Position numbers and translations under genes: made by a program
Notes under the pieces: generated by a model
What the model was told of the DNA's origin: nothing
Seen by the model: only the letters and a program-made list of their open reading frames with translations
Database searches by the model: none
Shown here: piece by piece, positions 14,331 through 46,008 of the stretch
Position numbering within the stretch: position 1 is the stretch's first letter
Layout of the letters: every line of letters begins with the position of its first letter
Assembly (NCBI GenBank): GCA_943371225.1
Contig: CALRUD020000002.1
Location: 142,832-206,831 of the forward strand
Direction of reading: 5' to 3'
Length of the DNA stretch: 64,000 nucleotides
Origin: Rhizobium sp. Q54
GTDB lineage: Bacteria; Pseudomonadota; Gammaproteobacteria; Burkholderiales; Burkholderiaceae_C

Positions 14331-16115
14331 TCAGGTCGTAAACTGCAGCGCTGCCAGGCGCGCATACACGCCGCCCCGGCTCACCAGCTCGGCGTGCGTG
14401 CCTTGCTCCACCAGCTGGCCATGGTCCAGCACCACAATGCGGTCGGCTTTTTGCACCGTGGCCAGGCGATGGGCAATGACCAGCGTGGTGCGGTCTTTCA
14501 TCGCGTATTCCAGTGCGGCTTGCACCATGCGTTCGCTTTCGGCGTCGAGTGCGCTGGTGGCTTCATCCAGCAGCAGCAGTGGCGCATTTTTCAGCATGGC
14601 ACGGGCAATGGCGATGCGCTGGCGCTGGCCACCGGAGAGGCGCACACCGCGTTCTCCCAGAAAGGTGGCATAGCCCTCCGGCAGGGCCGTGATGAAGTCG
14701 TGCGCAAACGCAGACCGTGCCGCTGCGTGTACCGCGTCGTCGGTCGCCGCGGGGTTACCGTAGCGGATGTTCTCCAGCGCACTGGTCGAAAAAATCACCG
14801 CGTCCTGCGGCACGATGCCGATGCGCTGGCGCAGGTCAGTCAGCGCCATGTCTCGGGTGGCCACGCCGTCGAGCTCCATGCTGCCACTGCTGGGGTCATA
14901 AAAGCGCATCAGCAACTGAAACACCGTGCTCTTGCCGGCGCCGCTAGGGCCCACAATCGCCACGGTTTCGCCCGGCGCGACATGCAGGTTGAAGTCGGTC
15001 AGCGCCGCCTGCGTGGGGCGCGACGGGTAGCGGAAGGTGACGTTTTTGAACTGCACCGCGCTGCCCGCGCTGGTGACGCGCGCCGGCACCGGGTGCGCAG
15101 GGGACGTGACAGGCGAGCGCGAGGCCAGCAGCTCCATCAGCCGCTCGGTGGCGCCAGCGGCGCGCAGCAGGTCGCCATATACCTCGCTCAGCACGGCCGC
15201 AGCGCTGGCGAGGATGATCACGTACACCACGGTCTGACCCAAGTGGCCCGCAGTGATGTCGCCGCGCGTCACCGCCTGCGTGCCCTGGTACAGCCCCCAC
15301 AGCAGCCCTGCAGAGGTCGCAATGATGATGAAGGCCACCAGCACGGTGCGTGCCCGCGTCCGCCTGATGGCGGTGTGAAAGGCGTTGGTGGTGGACTGGT
15401 TGAAGCGCTCGGCCTCGCGCCCTTCGGCGGTGTAGCTCTGAACCACCGGAATCGCATTCAGCACTTCGGCCGCAATCGCGCTGGAGTCGGCCACGCGGTC
15501 CTGGCTGGCGCGCGACAGCTTGCGCACCCGCCGCCCAAACCACACCGAAGGCGCAACGATCAGCACCAGACCACCCAGCACCTGCACCATGAGGTAGGGG
15601 TTGGTCACCACCAGCATGGTCAGTGCGCCTGCGCCCATCACTGCATTGCGCAGCCCCATGCTGAGCGATGACCCCACCACGGTTTGCACCAGCGTGGTGT
15701 CGCCCGTCAGGCGCGACAGCACTTCACCGGTCTGCGTGGTTTCAAAAAACTCCGGGCTTTGCCGCACGACATGGGAGTACACCGCATTGCGCAAGTCGGC
15801 GGTGACCCGCTCACCCAGCCAGCTCACGGTGTAGAAGCGGCCGGCAGAAAAAAGGCCTAGCGCGGCAGCCACCGCAAACAGCTCGAAGAAGTGTCGGCGC
15901 AGCACCATCATCTGCTCGCCTTTGTCACTCACGCTCAGGCCACCATCGATTAGGCTGCGCAGCGCCAGCGGGAACACCAGCGTCGCCACCGCAGCCATCA
16001 CCAGAAACAACACCGCCAGCAGGATATGCCCACGGTAGGGCTTGAGAAATGGAACCAGTCCGGAGAGGGAGCGCGGAGCGCCTTTGGGTGCGTCAGAGCG
16101 CGGAGATTGAGCCAT
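14331..16115 (-). CDS. ABC exporter, fused permease and ATPase (MsbA-like fold)
   Basis: Six TM segments, Walker A GPSGAGKST, signature LSGGQRQR and Walker B LLLLDEATS. Confidence 0.92.
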   Translation of the reverse strand: MAQSPRSDAPKGAPRSLSGLVPFLKPYRGHILLAVLFLVMAAVATLVFPLALRSLIDGGLSVSDKGEQMMVLRRHFFELFAVAAALGLFSAGRFYTVSWLGERVTADLRNAVYSHVVRQSPEFFETTQTGEVLSRLTGDTTLVQTVVGSSLSMGLRNAVMGAGALTMLVVTNPYLMVQVLGGLVLIVAPSVWFGRRVRKLSRASQDRVADSSAIAAEVLNAIPVVQSYTAEGREAERFNQSTTNAFHTAIRRTRARTVLVAFIIIATSAGLLWGLYQGTQAVTRGDITAGHLGQTVVYVIILASAAAVLSEVYGDLLRAAGATERLMELLASRSPVTSPAHPVPARVTSAGSAVQFKNVTFRYPSRPTQAALTDFNLHVAPGETVAIVGPSGAGKSTVFQLLMRFYDPSSGSMELDGVATRDMALTDLRQRIGIVPQDAVIFSTSALENIRYGNPAATDDAVHAAARSAFAHDFITALPEGYATFLGERGVRLSGGQRQRIAIARAMLKNAPLLLLDEATSALDAESERMVQAALEYAMKDRTTLVIAHRLATVQKADRIVVLDHGQLVEQGTHAELVSRGGVYARLAALQFTT

Positions 16116-16188
16116 CCGGTGAGTTTAGGGCTTGTGAGTGCTTGGGAGGCTGGCCTGAACATCGAAGGCGTCGCCAGACCCATGGGCA

Positions 16189-16563
16189 CTACTTGCTTAT
16201 AGCGAACGCGCTGCCTGCAACCACTTTTCACCCAGCAGAAGTTCGTTGCCAAACGCGAAGATACCGAAAGTGCCCTTCAAATGCATGACCCTTGAACACA
16301 CCAGAGACGAAGGCCAGGACGGTGACGGAGGCGACTGCTTCCCCAGCGCTGATCTGCCGATCCTGAAACTCCAGTGCCAGGATTCGTTGTTCACCTGACC
16401 TGTACAGGCTGAGATCACTGTCCTTTGAAAGAACGCTTCCGTCCGGACCGGTAAAGAGGAGAGAGTCGTCAATCAATGCGTCGAGCGTCGTGACGTCGCC
16501 TGCAAGCATTGCAGCTCGAAGTCCGTCCTCTGCGGCTTCGATCTCGGAAGTTCGGTTGTTCAT
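16189..16563 (-). pseudogene. NTF2-like/DUF4440 family gene with probable premature stop (second cassette gene)
   Basis: The 111-aa ORF ends at TGA 16228-16230. The frame continues KVVAGSAFAISK to TAG at 16189-16191, so reading TGA as Trp restores the typical final strand RVW...G-W-KVVAG. Confidence 0.6.
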
Positions 16564-16617
16564 CTAGTGTCGAACTCGTGATAGATGCAGATGAAGTTCA
16601 GGAACGTTGGTTACGAC

Positions 16618-16669
16618 GCTCAACGCCCAGGTTCAGGCGAGGACGTCGCATTGGAACCTGTTGTTAGGC
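16618..16669 (-). mobile_element. Integron attC site (compact, 52 bp)
   Basis: Minus strand reads GCCTAAC (R'', RYYYAAC), AACAG, GTT[C]CAAT (L''), inner stem GCGA/TCGC, CCTGAAC (L'), CTGGGC, GTTGAGC (R', GTTRRRY). It has 5/6-nt spacers and an extrahelical C at L'' position 4, and begins 15 nt after the TIR gene stop. Confidence 0.8.
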
Positions 16670-17463
16670 CAGCACACCCTCGATCTACTCTTTTGCTGTC
16701 ATCAAGCGAACCATTTCTTCGCGGCCTTTGGCCTCGACCCACATGAACTCCATTGTCCCTGAGCTGTTGACGTACTTTGCTTTGATAGCGAGATCGCGGG
16801 CGTAGTCGAATAGGAGCTTAGATGCGCCCATCGCCTGCCGCACTCTTTCGGTTTTAATTGCACCGCTCTCGAAGCTGCCTTCGTACACTTTCGATAGCGC
16901 AATCATGAATTGCGTCACCGGACTCGCCTGGGTTGGAGTGGGTGTCGAATGAGGAAGAAGCGTGGGAGTGTTCCCTATTGGCGGCTTCACAAAGAGCGGT
17001 GCGCCGAGGAGCTCGCGTAGCAACTGATCGAATCCGGTCTCGAAGTAGTCCTGCTTGGAGAGATCGATGTAGAGCTTGGAGCCGAGGAACGTTGGAAGCG
17101 CGCCCATTTGCCGTAGAACTGGGATCACTTTTGCAGAATCTATTCGCTTCATTAGTTCTGCGGTGACGATCATCTTTTCGTATCCGACGCCGCCCATCCC
17201 AGCATTCGCCTTCTCCACGTACCTGTTGGTGCAGATCATCAGAATTCGAACGGACTCCGAGATTCCCCTCTCCATAAAGTGGGGTAGATCGCCGCCTGGT
17301 CCGATGTCCCATTGGTCTAGGATCACGTCGATCCCAGAAGTCCTCAGCCGTGTTGCCAACTCCAACACCCACAGCTTGTGCTCTGGCGAATCATGGGAGT
17401 AGGAGATGAATACTTTCGGGGCTGACATTTTTGTGTTGACCTCACAGAGTCCTCGGGGCCTAA
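16624..17463 (-). mobile_element. Integron-type gene cassette (840 bp) carrying a TIR/SEFIR gene
   Basis: Begins at G^TTAGGC (17464-17458). The R'' of its downstream attC (GCCTAAC) is the exact reverse complement of that core site. Contains a single ORF with almost no spare DNA and has lower GC than its flanks. Confidence 0.78.
16685..17428 (-). CDS. TIR/SEFIR-domain protein with a C-terminal possible winged-helix domain
   Basis: Motifs KVFISYSHDS..H..WV..LA..LR..GIDV.LDQWD, ICT..Y..KA..G.GGVGYE (E84) and LPTFLGSKLYIDLS. GAGGT RBS before MSAPK. 247 aa. Confidence 0.88.
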   Translation of the reverse strand: MSAPKVFISYSHDSPEHKLWVLELATRLRTSGIDVILDQWDIGPGGDLPHFMERGISESVRILMICTNRYVEKANAGMGGVGYEKMIVTAELMKRIDSAKVIPVLRQMGALPTFLGSKLYIDLSKQDYFETGFDQLLRELLGAPLFVKPPIGNTPTLLPHSTPTPTQASPVTQFMIALSKVYEGSFESGAIKTERVRQAMGASKLLFDYARDLAIKAKYVNSSGTMEFMWVEAKGREEMVRLMTAKE

Positions 17464-17464
17464 C
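17458..17464 (-). other. GTTRRRY core recombination site (attI-like or secondary-site junction) at the cassette 5' boundary
   Basis: GTTAGGC on the minus strand, 30 nt upstream of the TIR start. No RYYYAAC partner was seen upstream, so it is not the R' of another intact attC. Confidence 0.65.
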
Positions 17465-17688
17465 GTAATGTATGGAGCAACACCTGCTGGATAAACTGGC
17501 CAGTGCTCGATATCCTGGACATGAAATCACCTTGAAAGTGGCTTGCAACCTTGATTCTGGCGCTTGTCCTTGCCAGTTTATACGGGCATAGAAATTCCGA
17601 CGAAGCCCGCAGCGAAAATTGTGGTGCTGCCTCATGACGCAGGTAATTCAAGGAAGTCATCGGTCTTTTGATAACTTCTGCTGCAAAT

Positions 17689-17736
17689 CCGTTCGGGCTG
17701 AGGTATCGAAGCCCTTCGATACCTCAGGGCGAACGG
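17689..17736. repeat. REP-like palindromic element
   Basis: CCGTTCG-GG-CTGAGGTATCGAAG-CC-CTTCGATACCTCAG-GG-CGAACGG. 27 bp (17711-17737) recur identically at 53320-53346. Confidence 0.75.
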
Positions 17737-17767
17737 TCATGGTTGCCGCCGCGACCTGCCCACCAAT

Positions 17768-18868
17768 CTACATCCGCAACGGCTGCGCATACCCCGTCAT
17801 CTCCAGATACCCACGCGCCACCTTCTTGCCATTGCTGTCGTACATATCGCTCAGCCCTTCCCAGTAAATCGCACCGGTGGAGCTGCGGCTGTCCATTTCC
17901 TGGTTGTCGATCACGGCCTTGACGGTGTAGAAATCGGCCGGGGTGCGCACGATCCATTCCACCGGGTAAGTGGCCTGCGAGAGCGGGCTTTTCCAGCTGC
18001 GTTGCGGTCTGAATTCGTTCTCGCCGCGGCTGGCGGTGTAGAGCTGGCCGTTGCCAGTGCGGAAGGAGCCGCCGTCCCACAGGGTGCTGCCGTCCTTGCG
18101 CCGCAGGCGAAAGGCGGTGAGGGCGCTGCCGTCGTAGTAGTTCATGCCGATCCAGTCCCAGCCGGTGGCTTCGGGGTGCAGCAGCTCCTCGCTCCATTCG
18201 TGGTCCAGCCAGGCCACGCCCTTGACGGCCAACTTCTGGTTGCCAACGGTCAGCGTTCCGCTGGTGGCCAGTTGCGGCTGGCTGTAGTAATAGCTCGCCT
18301 GCTTTTCCTCTGGCCCCTTGCGCGACAGGCCTTGCCGGCCTTGCAGCAGCACCGCCTGGGTTTCGTCGAACTGCAGCGACAGGCCAAAGTCGGTGGCTGG
18401 CAGCTCGGCGGTGTAGCGTTTGCCGTCTGCCTTCAGCGACCAGTCGCGCAGCCGGATGGCCATGTCCTGCTGGCCCGTGCTGGCGATATCAAAACCCTCG
18501 CGGGCAATGCGCTGGTCGTGCCAGAGTTTTTTGCCCTGCACATCGGTGATGGCGGCATGCGCGAACACCAGTTGCTTCGCGGCAAAGGCCGAGCCCATGC
18601 CCTGCGTGGCATCGACCCGTGAACGGAAAAACGTGAGCTGAAAGCCAAAGCGGCGCGGCACGGCCTCGGTGGTGAAGGCTTCGCCGGTGATGTACCACCA
18701 CTCGGTGCGAAAGTCCGGGTGGGAGCCGCGGTCGCGCGGGAATACCAGGGCCTTCGCGGGCAGTGCGTTAGCAGCGTCGTGCGGCAGCGCGGCGGCGCCT
18801 GCGGCCATGCCCATCCACTGCAGGGCCTGCCGGCGCCGGATCGGGCTCATGTTGATGTTCAAGCTCAT
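17768..18868 (-). CDS. Lipocalin-like / carotenoid 1,2-hydratase-like (AttH, Rv0988-type) periplasmic protein
   Basis: [36 protein letters not shown] and YWEG...GYLEMTGY motifs. Twin-Arg signal IRRRQALQW. Start at 18868 or 18850. Confidence 0.85.
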
Positions 18869-19986
18869 GTGTCTGATGTGAGCTCGGGGCGCATCAGGCG
18901 GACTATGCCGTCGTGTGCGGTGCTGCAGTCGCCCAGCTTGTCGGCCACCCAGCCGTCGTCGTGGTAGGTGGGCAGATAGCGCTCGCCCGAGTCGCACAGC
19001 AGCGACAGGATGGAGCCCTGTTCGCCGCGGGCCAGCATCTCGTGGGCTAGCGTCAGCATGCCGATGAAGTTGGTGCCGGTGGAGGGGCCGACCTTGCGGC
19101 CCAGCAGGCGCGACAGCGCGCGCATGGCGGCCAGCGAATCGGCATCGGGCACCTCAATCATGCGGTCGATCACGCTGCGGATGAAGCTGGCCTCTACCTG
19201 CGGCCGGCCAATGCCTTCGATGCGCGAGCCGGGGCCTGTCAGGCTGGCGTCACCCGTGCGGTGATACGCCGCAAACACCGAGCCCACCGGGTCGGCCACA
19301 CACAGCTGGCTCGCGTGCTGCTGGTAGCGCACATAGCGGCCAATTGTGGCGCTAGTGCCACCGGTGCCGGCACCGACCACAATCCAGCGCGGCACGGGAA
19401 AGCGCTCGCGCGCCATCTGGTGGAACATGCTCTCGGCAATGTTGTTGTTGCCGCGCCAGTCGGTGGCGCGCTCGGCATAGGTGAACTGGTCCATGTAGTG
19501 GCCGCCCGACTCAGCTGCCAGCCGGCGCGCCTCGTCATACACCTCGCCGGCGCTGCCGACCCAGTGGCAGCGACCGCCGTAAAGTTCGATCTGCGCGATT
19601 TTTTCTGGTGAGGTGCTGCGCGGCATCACTGCGATGAAAGGCAGCCCGAGCAGGCGGGCGAAGTAGGCCTCGCTCACGGCGGTGGAGCCACTGGAGGCCT
19701 CGACGATGGTGGAGCCCTCGTGAATCAGGCCGTTGCACAGCGCGTACAGAAACAGCGAGCGCGCCAAGCGGTGCTTGAGGCTGCCCGTGGGGTGGGTGGA
19801 CTCGTCTTTCAGGTAGAGGTCAATCCCGCGCGCCGCGAAATCCGGCAGGGGCAGTGCGATGAGGTGGGTGTCAGCACTGCGCTGAAAGTCGGCCTCAATA
19901 CGCGCTATGGCCGCATGCAGCCAGGCATGACCTGTGGCCCCGGTGGTGTGGGGGCCGGGAAGTACAAGAGGGGGCGCAGACGTCAT
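18865..19986 (-). CDS. cds1: PLP-dependent cysteine synthase family, Cds1-type L-cysteine desulfhydrase
   Basis: [45 protein letters not shown] and [13 protein letters not shown] motifs. Confidence 0.8.
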
Positions 19987-45015: not shown

Positions 45016-45047
45016 CCGCCGCACGCGCCAGTGTCCGGCGGTTTTTT
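45016..45047 (+). terminator. Intrinsic terminator after the Bug gene
   Basis: CCGCCG...CGGCGG stem followed by TTTTTT. Confidence 0.6.
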
Positions 45048-45105
45048 CTTTTCTGCTGTTCTTTGCGGGTTCCGCTTTCGTTTTGGTTTTTGTTATGGTC
45101 TGAGC

Positions 45106-46008
45106 ATGCACGACCACAGCCAGTCACGTATCGACAGCTTCATTGACGCCCTGTGGCTGGAAGACGGGTTGAGCAAGAACACGCTGGCGGCGTACCGGCG
45201 CGACCTGTCCCTGTTTGCTGAGTGGCTGGGTGCGACCGCTCAAGGCGGGCGCCACCTCGATGAGGCGTTGGAGACCGATCTGCATGGTTATTTCGCCGCG
45301 CGCCATGCGGTAACGCGGGCCACTTCTGCGAACCGGCGCCTGACGGTCTTCAAGCGCTATTTCCGCTGGGCACTGCGCGAACGAATGATCGTGGCAGACC
45401 CCACCCTCAAGCTGCAGTCGGCCAAACAGGCGCTGCGGGTGCCCAAGACCATGAGCGAGGCCCAGGTCGAATCGCTGCTGGCGGCGCCGGACGAGGGCAC
45501 CCCACTGGGTCAGCGCGACCGGGCGATGCTGGAGCTGATGTACGCCAGTGGCTTGCGGGTGAGCGAGCTGGTGCGGCTCAAGACCTTCCAGCTGGGCCTC
45601 AATGAGGGCGTGCTGCGCGTCATGGGCAAAGGCAGCAAGGAGCGGCTGGTGCCCTTCGGACAGGTGGCGCGTGACTGCGTAGTGCACTACATGGCCGAGG
45701 CGCGGCAGGCCATTCTGGGTGGGCAGCAGACCGACGACCTGTTTGTCACCGGCCATGGCAAGGGCATGAGCCGCGTGATGTTCTGGATGCTGGTCAAGAA
45801 ATACGCCAAGCGGGCCCACATCACCTCACCGCTGTCGCCGCACACCCTGCGGCACGCCTTTGCCACGCACCTGCTCAATCACGGCGCCGATCTGCGGGCG
45901 GTGCAGATGCTGCTTGGCCATTCGGACATTTCGACCACCACGATCTACACCCACGTGGCACGCGAACGGCTCAAGGCCTTGCATGCGCAGCATCATCCAC
46001 GGGGATGA
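45106..46008 (+). CDS. xerD: Site-specific tyrosine recombinase XerD
   Basis: LWLEDGLSKNTL.AYRRDL, ELMYASGLRVSEL, GKGSKERLVP and HTLRHAFATHLLNHGADLR..Q.LLGH..ISTT.IY motifs. Confidence 0.93.
   Translation: MHDHSQSRIDSFIDALWLEDGLSKNTLAAYRRDLSLFAEWLGATAQGGRHLDEALETDLHGYFAARHAVTRATSANRRLTVFKRYFRWALRERMIVADPTLKLQSAKQALRVPKTMSEAQVESLLAAPDEGTPLGQRDRAMLELMYASGLRVSELVRLKTFQLGLNEGVLRVMGKGSKERLVPFGQVARDCVVHYMAEARQAILGGQQTDDLFVTGHGKGMSRVMFWMLVKKYAKRAHITSPLSPHTLRHAFATHLLNHGADLRAVQMLLGHSDISTTTIYTHVARERLKALHAQHHPRG

Follow-up and report, generated by a model that had tools for sequence, protein, structure and literature searches.

Integrase-less cassette clusters (CALINs; PMC4889954) and the chromosomal integrons of Xanthomonas (bioRxiv 10.1101/2025.06.18.660453) present attC cassettes on a chromosome with no working integrase, and loss of the integrase gene intI is one proposed origin of such clusters (PMC4889954; bioRxiv 10.1101/2025.06.18.660453). 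The locus described here, positions 16135-17612 of the window (the whole stretch of DNA that was analysed, 64,000 nucleotides), resembles them in both respects, and is very probably a decayed chromosomal integron in a Polaromonas genome, of a lineage common in that genus, from which intI has been deleted. It differs in that its origin can be traced through a surviving, lineage-specific attI, unlike that of 95% of CALINs (PMC4889954), and in that intI appears to have been almost wholly removed and not left as a pseudogene. The betaproteobacterial sedentary chromosomal integrons, exemplified by the complete Polaromonas integrons of genomes G016, G046 and G114, share with this locus the attI family, the geometry (intI on the plus strand, then attI, with cassettes on the minus strand) and the layout of the attC sites. 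Compared with these, the present locus has no intI, one cassette and one attC-less gene, and an attC of 52 bp versus 57-129 bp. The locus clearly exemplifies a known type of element, and represents no unfamiliar class.

The preliminary description of this DNA read, on the minus strand, a core site, a TIR/SEFIR open reading frame (ORF), an attC and a DUF4440 ORF, and all of these are present in that order. The relic has an AttH/CrtC-like gene on one side and an MsbA-like ABC exporter gene on the other, and the features of this region are as follows (evidence in parentheses; the caret marks the crossover point):

14331-16134, minus strand: host flank, MsbA-related ABC exporter gene (14331-16115) with a conserved leader (Pfam, NCBIfam)
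16135-16623, minus strand: DUF4440 unit, having a cassette-type 5' end (TTGAGC...) and no attC (Pfam; alignment with G150 and G159)
16618-16669, minus strand: 52-bp attC of the TIR/SEFIR cassette (layout, genome scan, covariance models, position in G159)
16624-17463, minus strand: 840-bp TIR/SEFIR gene cassette, beginning with TTAGGC and ending with the G of R' (swap in G159; homologous cassettes)
16685-17428, minus strand: TIR/SEFIR ORF, 247 amino acids from the likely start (Pfam, PADLOC, predicted structure)
17458-17464, minus strand: attI core and crossover, G^TTAGGC (read from the sequence; homology with G159 ends here)
17458-17612, minus strand: attI region, including the intI-attI intergenic region; a conserved element, most conserved at 17458-17552
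17460-17522, minus strand: 20-codon ORF in attI, with a Shine-Dalgarno sequence (SD) AAGGTG at 17533-17528 and a TAG stop formed by core positions 3-5
17600-17612, plus strand: possible last trace of intI (alignment with copies adjoining intact intI)
17613-17688, no strand: 76-bp filler where intI would be expected (similarity search)
17689-17736, no strand: REP-like perfect palindrome, outside the integron (DNA hairpin of -21.5 kcal/mol, z -7.2)
17768-18997, minus strand: host flank, AttH/CrtC-like lipocalin gene (Pfam CrtC 1e-57, Lipocalin_9 5e-35)

In many Comamonadaceae the AttH gene immediately precedes the ABC exporter gene, which is the empty-site arrangement, and the two genes adjoin in many related genera. 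Comparison of this interval among relatives, proposed earlier as a check, recovered the empty site (AttH beside the ABC exporter, no integron) in genomes G001 and G020. A conserved sequence, GAGTTTAG, beside the start codon of the exporter gene is found in the empty-site genomes as well. Two other genomes, G006 and G021, have intI in or near the ABC-AttH interval and were considered as carriers of the same insertion, but this was not accepted because their intI is in the opposite orientation, with host-like genes between. The REP-like palindrome has many copies in this genome and its relatives, and is absent from the locus in the sister species, G159. A low-GC island had been claimed, and the island is indeed lower in GC than its flanks, although the contrast (50-57% vs 62-70%) is smaller than was claimed.

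The "upstream core site" GTTAGGC of the preliminary description belongs to a conserved attI, in which it is the point of crossover. In G016, G046 and G114 the attI element, of ~95-150 bp, is found ~50 bp upstream of an intact intI, divergent to it and with the attC arrays on the far side, the same geometry as here; with a GTTRRRY core and an intI-adjacent position in these relatives, homology and position point to an attI at the present locus. The element occurs in 35 of 201 genomes of the genus, in up to four copies per genome. Two further copies in this genome each border a low-GC array on its upstream side: one adjoins a decayed N-terminal fragment of intI (C1:930665-931009), the only tblastn match to Polaromonas IntI in the genome, and the other precedes a 5-kb array in which there are 9 attC sites. 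The genome has three attI-headed arrays and no IntI, and apart from the present locus it contains at least four attC/attI loci. IntI above the NCBIfam cut-off is encoded in 27 of 121 genomes of the genus. It had been suggested that cassette capture would be unexpected in this lineage, which is wrong; capture here is expected because integrons are common in the genus.

These findings bear on whether a platform ever existed at the locus, since an integrase from elsewhere could instead have used a secondary GTT site in the chromosome for the direct insertion of one cassette or two. IntI-mediated cassette insertion outside att sites has been demonstrated (bioRxiv 10.1101/2022.09.11.507474), this genome has other arrays without intI, and on contig L022 a homologue of the TIR gene stands by itself, with GTTAGCC and GCTTAAC on its two sides and tsaE and an aspartokinase gene as neighbours. 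However, the core at the present locus terminates an element of ~150 bp whose homologue in complete integrons is the attI and intI-proximal region, with homology extending to the position of the intI start, and a secondary insertion would not carry attI along. Direct genomic insertion, one of two origins first offered, was rejected because the attI platform is present, and we regard it as highly improbable; the other, a relic of a lost integron forming an integrase-less cassette array, is borne out by the conserved attI and by the cassette swap in G159 described below.

Searches for IntI found none in the window or in the genome, the best match to TIGR02249 scoring 84 bits against a cut-off of 265 bits, and the sole tyrosine recombinase of the window is XerD (45031-46008). 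The earlier observation that no intI-like ORF flanks the array was thereby confirmed genome-wide, and the locus lacks the adjoining IntI gene of a complete integron. IntI above the cut-off is likewise absent from G000 (this genome), G150 and G159. At 17600-17612 the sequence ACG AAG CCC GCA G aligns with ATG AAA CCC CGC of the intact copies, and could possibly be a trace of intI, made up of a start mutated to ACG and ~3 further codons; the same trace is found in G159, and homology ends at 17612. The filler that follows has no significant similarity to intact intI or to its counterpart in G159. A longer coding remnant past 17612, of ~25 decayed codons, was tried and rejected, as alignments were no better than those of shuffled sequences and blastn-short found nothing. 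We infer the deletion of intI from position only, because nothing beyond 17612 can be aligned to the gene. An ancestral intI deletion common to G000 and G159 was considered: the breakpoints of the two genomes coincide, but their fillers (73-76 nt) are not alignable.

The short ORF within attI is similar in design to ORF-11 of the class 1 attI1 (Hanau-Bercot et al. 2002, reviewed in PMC8876359). Each is a brief reading frame within attI that has an SD and an ATG of its own, and each ends in a TAG stop at positions 3-5 of the GTTRRRY core, taken from the first cassette; ORF-11 has 11 codons versus 20 here, and the sequences are unrelated. The ORF, its ATG and its SD are kept in 7 of 10 copies of attI, including all three that neighbour an intact intI. 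This ORF, which terminates within the core, may aid translation. A consensus scan of 16050-17800 found no sigma-70-like site as a candidate for the Pc promoter of a complete integron, and no terminator. Cassette expression would probably come from an attI-side promoter or from read-through of the AttH gene.

The attC of the TIR/SEFIR cassette comprises R'' (GCCTAAC, 16669-16663), a 5-nt spacer, L'' (GTTCCAA), a 14-nt VTS, L' (CTGAAC), a 6-nt spacer and R' (GTTGAGC, 16624-16618). R'' and R' are inverted and conform to RYYYAAC and GTTRRRY, and R'' and the upstream core are exact reverse complements of each other, as expected for an excised circle. Five of six positions of the L boxes pair, with an extrahelical C (G on the bottom strand) at the canonical fourth position. 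The boxes, the 5/6-nt spacers, the extrahelical C and the reciprocity of R'' and core were all as first described. The overall layout, 7-5-7 (extrahelical base at position 4)-VTS-6-6-7, is identical to that of 24 genuine attC sites of the genus. A strict RYYYAAC...GTTRRRY pattern was replaced by a scan with this fixed layout, because the pattern is too loose alone and palindromic. The fixed-layout scan of the 3.5-Mb genome returned 11 sites, seven of them in verified cassette arrays and one being the 52-bp site, whereas six reversed or shuffled control genomes gave 0-4 sites, none of them of 70 nt or less. The pattern at the 52-bp site exceeds chance.

Covariance models trained on the genus (R1 and R2) find the 52-bp site as the top match of the island, at its exact coordinates and strand. 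The score is nevertheless weak, 9.5 bits (R1) and 12.7 bits (R2), with E 0.15 in 2.1 kb and E 1.3 in the 64-kb window, where one non-attC palindrome scores higher; the covariance-model match put forward as a check is thus present but not strong. Rfam has no match in 15900-18000 at E of 1 or below. Folding of the bottom strand, a second proposed check, placed the site inside the range of genuine short attCs, and gave -15.1 kcal/mol for the form expected in the circle, with R' restored; when the 52-71-nt region is folded without constraint, z is -0.7 to -2.0, which is not decisive by itself. The usual unpaired central bubble has shrunk to a small internal loop in the predicted fold because the two spacers, AACAG and CTGGGC, are partly complementary. 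The site had been called shorter than usual, and it is in fact shorter than every other attC found in the genus (57-129 bp); it may no longer recombine.

An ordinary small islet, brought in by homologous recombination or another mobile element and bearing attC-like and core motifs by chance, was also considered. GTTRRRY and RYYYAAC are short and common, folding of 71 nt is no better than that of shuffles (z -0.7), the covariance score is weak as noted, and homologous recombination does act at the locus (the G000-G150 tract, below). Against this stand the lack of any short layout match in the control genomes, the coincidence of the site with a significant attC in G159, the breaks in homology at both crossover points, and the cassette boundaries kept in distant TIR homologues. 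Coincidence of motifs is therefore an extremely improbable explanation, and an attC within a relic integron is preferred.

In G159 the locus also contains the DUF4440 unit, and its flanks, ABC and AttH, are 90-91% identical to those of the window. From the attI core to the G^TT of R', however, G159 has a non-homologous cassette, with a 191-amino-acid ORF and an attC of 31.3 bits (E 5e-6) at the position occupied here by the 52-bp site, and it is at these two points that homology with the window breaks. On this alignment, G159 is a natural cassette replacement at the same crossover points. G000 and G150, on one side, and G159, on the other, thus have no intI at the locus, attI homology that ends at the same point, and different first cassettes. 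A different process is evident between G000 and G150, which share a 1.2-kb tract including a TIR allele that is 99.6-100% identical while the flanks differ by 6-7%. Because this near-identical tract is not bounded by cassette sites, the recent movement of the TIR allele is attributed to homologous recombination and not to IntI.

Homologues of the TIR gene with 71-82% identity, on unrelated metagenome contigs, have GTTAGSC 28-31 nt before the ATG (i.e., a 28-31-nt 5' untranslated region) and an R'' of GCCTAAC or GCTTAAC 15-16 nt past the stop (41 nt in L068), and ahead of two of them lies the 3' half of another attC. No attC was found near the homologues in P. aeruginosa, beside a Pf-like prophage, and in contig L023. 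Judged by these comparisons, the TIR gene is a travelling cassette with conserved GTTAGGC/GCCTAAC boundaries.

The second unit contains a DUF4440 ORF (16563-16228, 111 amino acids, Pfam 6e-18) that here has a premature TGA; in G150 and G159 the frame reaches 16189 (124 amino acids). No attC follows it, either by covariance models with filters off or by eye. The locus had been presented as a two-cassette array, which holds for the TIR unit, a complete cassette, and not for the DUF4440 unit, which has a cassette-type 5' boundary only and lacks an attC; the array therefore consists of one complete cassette and one attC-less unit. With this single attC, the locus falls outside the IntegronFinder definition of a CALIN, which asks for two or more attC sites in 4 kb with no intI close by. 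Since TIR/SEFIR and DUF4440 are adjacent, co-oriented and together in both G000 and G150, they might instead be a two-gene defence operon that moves as one, with the intergenic hairpin as a regulatory element or terminator. Yet DUF4440 occurs at the same locus in G159 without the TIR cassette and with a different upstream gene, it neighbours the TIR homologue in 0 of 6 contexts examined, it is interrupted in G000, and PADLOC finds no match for it. An operon is accordingly hardly credible, and the arrangement is better read as a cassette placed ahead of an older gene in the relic integron.

The product of the TIR/SEFIR ORF (17428-16685) matches Pfam TIR_2 (6e-24, 85 bits) above SEFIR (8e-13, 49 bits), whereas a bSEFIR system is defined by an N-terminal SEFIR domain that outscores TIR. 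PADLOC gives a match to bSEFIR (7.5e-78), restricted to profile positions 35-203 of 412, the N-terminal, SEFIR half. The best PDB match of the predicted structure is a prokaryotic SEFIR domain, 5Y8E. The C-terminal domain (H-E-H-H-E-E-H) is predicted to be winged-helix-like with pLDDT of 85-92; it has no Pfam match and differs from the PADLOC bSEFIR profile. A bacterial SEFIR protein was shown to defend against phage (bioRxiv 10.1101/2022.05.11.491447), and phage defence encoded by integron cassettes is known (bioRxiv 10.1101/2024.07.02.601719). The protein resembles the bSEFIR system of Bacillus sp. NIO-1130 (Millman et al., bioRxiv 10.1101/2022.05.11.491447) in having an N-terminal SEFIR/TIR-like domain and in being encoded by a single gene, and differs in its length (247 amino acids vs a 412-position profile) and in its small winged-helix-like C-terminus. 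It is most probably a single-gene anti-phage defence of the abortive-infection type, in which the SEFIR/TIR domain would oligomerise and the C-terminal domain would act as sensor.

From these comparisons we infer the following order of events. An integron located in the AttH-ABC intergenic spacer would originally have had intI on the plus strand and, divergent from it, attI with minus-strand cassettes oriented towards the ABC exporter gene. The DUF4440 unit would be its older, attI-distal gene, which has since lost its attC, and the TIR/SEFIR cassette the newer, attI-proximal member, likely inserted by an integron integrase through attI x attC recombination at G^TT; this would have left GTTAGGC on the left side and the cassette's own short attC on the right. 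Deletion of intI would have spared attI, the intI-attI intergenic region and at most ~4 codons. Ordinary homologous recombination would later have carried the TIR-cassette allele from one lineage to another. With no IntI in the genome, the array is now frozen. More tentatively, and on balance doubtfully, orphan attI platforms such as this one could be live docking sites served in trans by passing integrases, with attI-cassette modules spread by homologous recombination. Indirect support for this comes from the differing first cassettes of G000/G150 and G159, none of which has intI at the locus, from the three attI-headed arrays of a genome without IntI, from the presence of up to four attI copies in a genome of the genus, and from the near-identical 1.2-kb tract with the TIR allele in lineages whose flanks have diverged.

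In summary, whereas most integrase-less cassette clusters are untraceable to a source, the surviving attI of the lineage lets an origin by loss of intI be read directly in this case, and the sister species shows the same site with its cassette naturally exchanged. The present picture of integrons is unchanged, and a well-documented example from an environmental genus is added to it. The 52-bp attC would be useful for probing the minimal needs of IntI recombination. An attI ORF of the ORF-11 design in a chromosomal integron suggests that translational coupling at attI may be more general, and one more probable anti-phage gene, of the SEFIR/TIR type, appears to be carried as an integron cassette, also into the housekeeping DNA of unrelated bacteria.

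The locus lies on the minus strand, where each feature of the preliminary description was found in its place.

Features of the locus (window coordinates)
18997-17768, minus strand: AttH/CrtC-like gene
17689-17736: perfect 48-bp palindrome CCGTTCGCCCTGAGGTATCGAAGGGCTTCGATACCTCAGCCCGAACGG, a REP-like repeat that separates the AttH stop from the integron relic
17464-17458, minus strand: core site GTTAGGC
17428-16685, minus strand: TIR_2/SEFIR ORF, 247 aa from its likely start
16669-16663, minus strand: R'' GCCTAAC
16624-16618, minus strand: R' GTTGAGC
16563-16228, minus strand: DUF4440 ORF
16115-14331, minus strand: MsbA-related ABC exporter gene

The GC content of the island is 50-57% against 62-70% in the flanks, so that the lower GC reported earlier holds, though with a smaller gap than the 45-55 against 75 proposed. 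The palindrome (DNA hairpin of -21.5 kcal/mol) is outside the integron element; the repeat is found throughout Polaromonas and at many further places (e.g., C1:540474-540542 and C2:196150-196177), and is missing from the corresponding spot in the sister species, G159.

Searching the genome with the island revealed two more copies of the 17458-17552 element, at C6:79229-79318 and C1:931071-931163 (82-86% identity), both in the same orientation and each marking the upstream border of a low-GC stretch. A decayed integron integrase fragment, N-terminal, is located some 60 bp from the C1 copy, and the C6 copy stands at the head of 5 kb of small ORFs, all in one orientation and with textbook attC sites between them. 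In three Polaromonas genomes with an IntI above the NCBIfam cut-off (G016, G046, and G114), the same element is positioned about 50 bp upstream of the start of an intact, divergent intI, with attC arrays on the far side. Judged by position and homology to these intact-intI loci, the 17458-17552 element is this integron lineage's attI; the GTTAGGC core site noted earlier is the crossover point of attI. Across 201 Polaromonas genomes, 35 have the attI-like element, in as many as four copies per genome and often where IntI is absent.

Homology of the window to the attI/intI region reaches 17612, about four codons into the expected place of intI, whose expected start codon reads ACG; past 17612 there is no alignment to intI. 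From these alignments, intI appears to have been deleted almost entirely at this locus. The observation that no intI-like ORF flanks the array was borne out: XerD is the sole tyrosine recombinase of the window, and a search of the whole genome for IntI was also empty. The suggestion that cassette capture would be unexpected in this lineage is, however, contradicted by IntI above the NCBIfam cut-off in 27 of 121 sampled Polaromonas genomes. The attI itself contains, at 17460-17533 of the minus strand, an SD sequence (AAGGTG/AGGAG), an ATG, and a 20-codon ORF whose TAG stop occupies positions 3-5 of the GTTAGGC core. This design, the same as that of ORF-11 in the class 1 attI1 site, is seen in the window and at L037, L034, L028, L024, L046, and L049; among ten copies compared it was kept in seven, including all three that adjoin an intact intI.

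A layout for attC was derived from 24 sites gathered from arrays of the genus: a 7-nt R'', a 5-nt spacer, a 7-nt L'' with an extrahelical base at position 4, a variable centre (VTS), a 6-nt L', a 6-nt spacer, and a 7-nt R'. The window site, GCCTAAC-AACAG-GTTCCAA-(14 nt)-CTGAAC-CTGGGC-GTTGAGC, fits it exactly, with five of six L pairs formed. Scanning both strands of the 3.5-Mb genome returned 11 sites, three of them of 70 nt or shorter, whereas the reversed genome gave two and five codon-block shuffles gave 0-4 each, none of 70 nt or shorter in any control. Seven of the 11 are in covariance-model-confirmed arrays, one is the window site, and three, long and GC-rich, are probably chance matches. 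Covariance models of attC trained only on other sites of the genus placed the window site well but scored it weakly: with R1 it ranked first in the 2.1-kb island, its coordinates and strand being exactly recovered (9.5 bits, E 0.15), and with R2 it reached 12.7 bits (E 1.3 for the 64-kb window). The penalty arises mostly from 35 nt absent from the variable centre. Folding energy per nucleotide of the bottom strand is inside the range of genuine short attCs. When R' is restored to the form expected after excision (G followed by TTAGGC from the cassette itself), the bottom strand folds into a complete hairpin of -15.1 kcal/mol, which exceeds the top strand in stability. The site is taken to be an attC. 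It may nevertheless be a poor or dead recombination substrate, because its length of 52 bp (no other site found in the genus was shorter than 57 bp) and its partly complementary spacers, which leave a smaller unpaired central bubble, are atypical.

The sister species G159 has the same locus. Identity to the window is 90-91% in the ABC and AttH flanks, and the DUF4440 unit and attI are as in the window; from the attI core to the point that corresponds to window 16624/16623 there is a different, non-homologous cassette, with a 191-aa ORF and an attC of 31.3 bits (E 5e-6). In the alignment, homology resumes at ...C^GTTG(A/C)GCGTCGTAACC, i.e., at G^TT of R', and on the other side stops at GTTAGGCC. 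Two different cassettes between the same crossover points are the hallmark of insertion at attI by an integrase. Since G159 has a different cassette beside DUF4440 at these points, TIR and DUF4440 are independent units and not an operon. The DUF4440 unit encodes a SnoaL-like small protein. At its 5' end it is cassette-like, with TTGAGC immediately past the crossover, but no attC was found after it, and conserved host sequence lies only some 55 bp from the full-length DUF4440 stop (16189). A premature TGA at 16228-16230 limits the ORF to 111 aa in this genome; G150, another Polaromonas genome, and G159 have TGG at that codon and 13 more codons to 16189, for 124 aa. The two-cassette array of the preliminary description is thus, strictly, one complete cassette (TIR) and one former cassette that lacks an attC.

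Examination of relatives for an empty site was successful: AttH adjoins the ABC exporter gene in G001, G020, and many Rhodoferax, Ramlibacter, and other Comamonadaceae records, an adjacency that represents the empty site. The interval varies from 0 to 14 kb in Polaromonas. G006 has an intact integron 13.5 kb from the ABC gene and G021 an intI fragment within the interval; a common insertion with these was not shown, given that both are in the opposite orientation and have host-like genes between them and the ABC gene. G150, a different species, has the same array as the window, with flanks and DUF4440 93-94% identical, yet across 16500-17740 its locus (L059) shows only about five differences in 1240 positions (99.6-100% identity). 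This tract holds the DUF4440 5' end, attC, TIR cassette, attI, filler, and REP, and its limits do not coincide with cassette sites. It is a recent homologous-recombination tract, which moved the TIR allele, with intI already gone, between lineages. No IntI was found in the window genome, G150, or G159 (79% complete). Both breakpoints of the intI loss are common to all three genomes; the 73-76-nt fillers of the first two are not alignable with that of G159. Four more integron remnants are present in the window genome, with no functional IntI for them anywhere in it: an attI-headed 5-kb array with nine attC sites (C6:79229-84400), an attI accompanied by a decayed intI fragment and by a single cassette whose attC is degenerate (C1:930665-932100), and two attC clusters (C1:138094-139063 and C1:537938-538980).

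The N-terminal domain of the 247-aa protein matches PADLOC bSEFIR (7.5e-78), the aligned part of the profile being its SEFIR half. The C-terminal 80 residues, predicted with high confidence as helix-strand-helix-helix-strand-strand-helix, have no Pfam match and are modeled as a winged-helix-like domain. A bacterial SEFIR protein guards Bacillus subtilis against phage phi29 (bioRxiv 10.1101/2022.05.11.491447), and phage-defence genes are known on integron cassettes (bioRxiv 10.1101/2024.07.02.601719); by this analogy, a single-gene anti-phage role is most likely. The protein family is large (2009 matches), and homologues of 71-82% identity on unrelated metagenome contigs were examined. Four have GTTAGGC or GTTAGCC 28-31 nt ahead of the ATG, two have R'' GCCTAAC or GCTTAAC 15-16 nt past the stop, and a third has R'' 41 nt past the stop with a full attC; the 3' half of another attC precedes two homologues, and an AbiJ-like gene comes after one. 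On metagenome contig SRR32046553_4565 (L022, 5100-6000), a homologue of 76% identity stands by itself, with tsaE on one side and an aspartokinase gene on the other, and is flanked by GTTAGCC upstream and GCTTAAC downstream. It looks like a lone cassette that has entered housekeeping DNA where there is no attI, and this placement implies that the TIR cassette can also land there without a platform. By these flanking sites, the TIR gene is a travelling cassette. A 68% identical homologue occurs in many Pseudomonas aeruginosa assemblies (L018-L021), beside a Pf-like filamentous prophage (Zot, coat B), and has no detectable attC nearby.

In summary, the window element works like a sedentary chromosomal integron and descends from one. 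Lacking intI, it is by definition not a complete integron, and with only one attC it falls outside the formal rule for CALIN (PMC4889954). It belongs among integron relics with a lost integrase, and the initial reading as an integrase-less array left by a lost integron is supported by the presence of attI and the loss of intI. Whereas recognisable intI pseudogenes are near only 5% of CALINs (PMC4889954), the origin of this element is traceable through its surviving attI.
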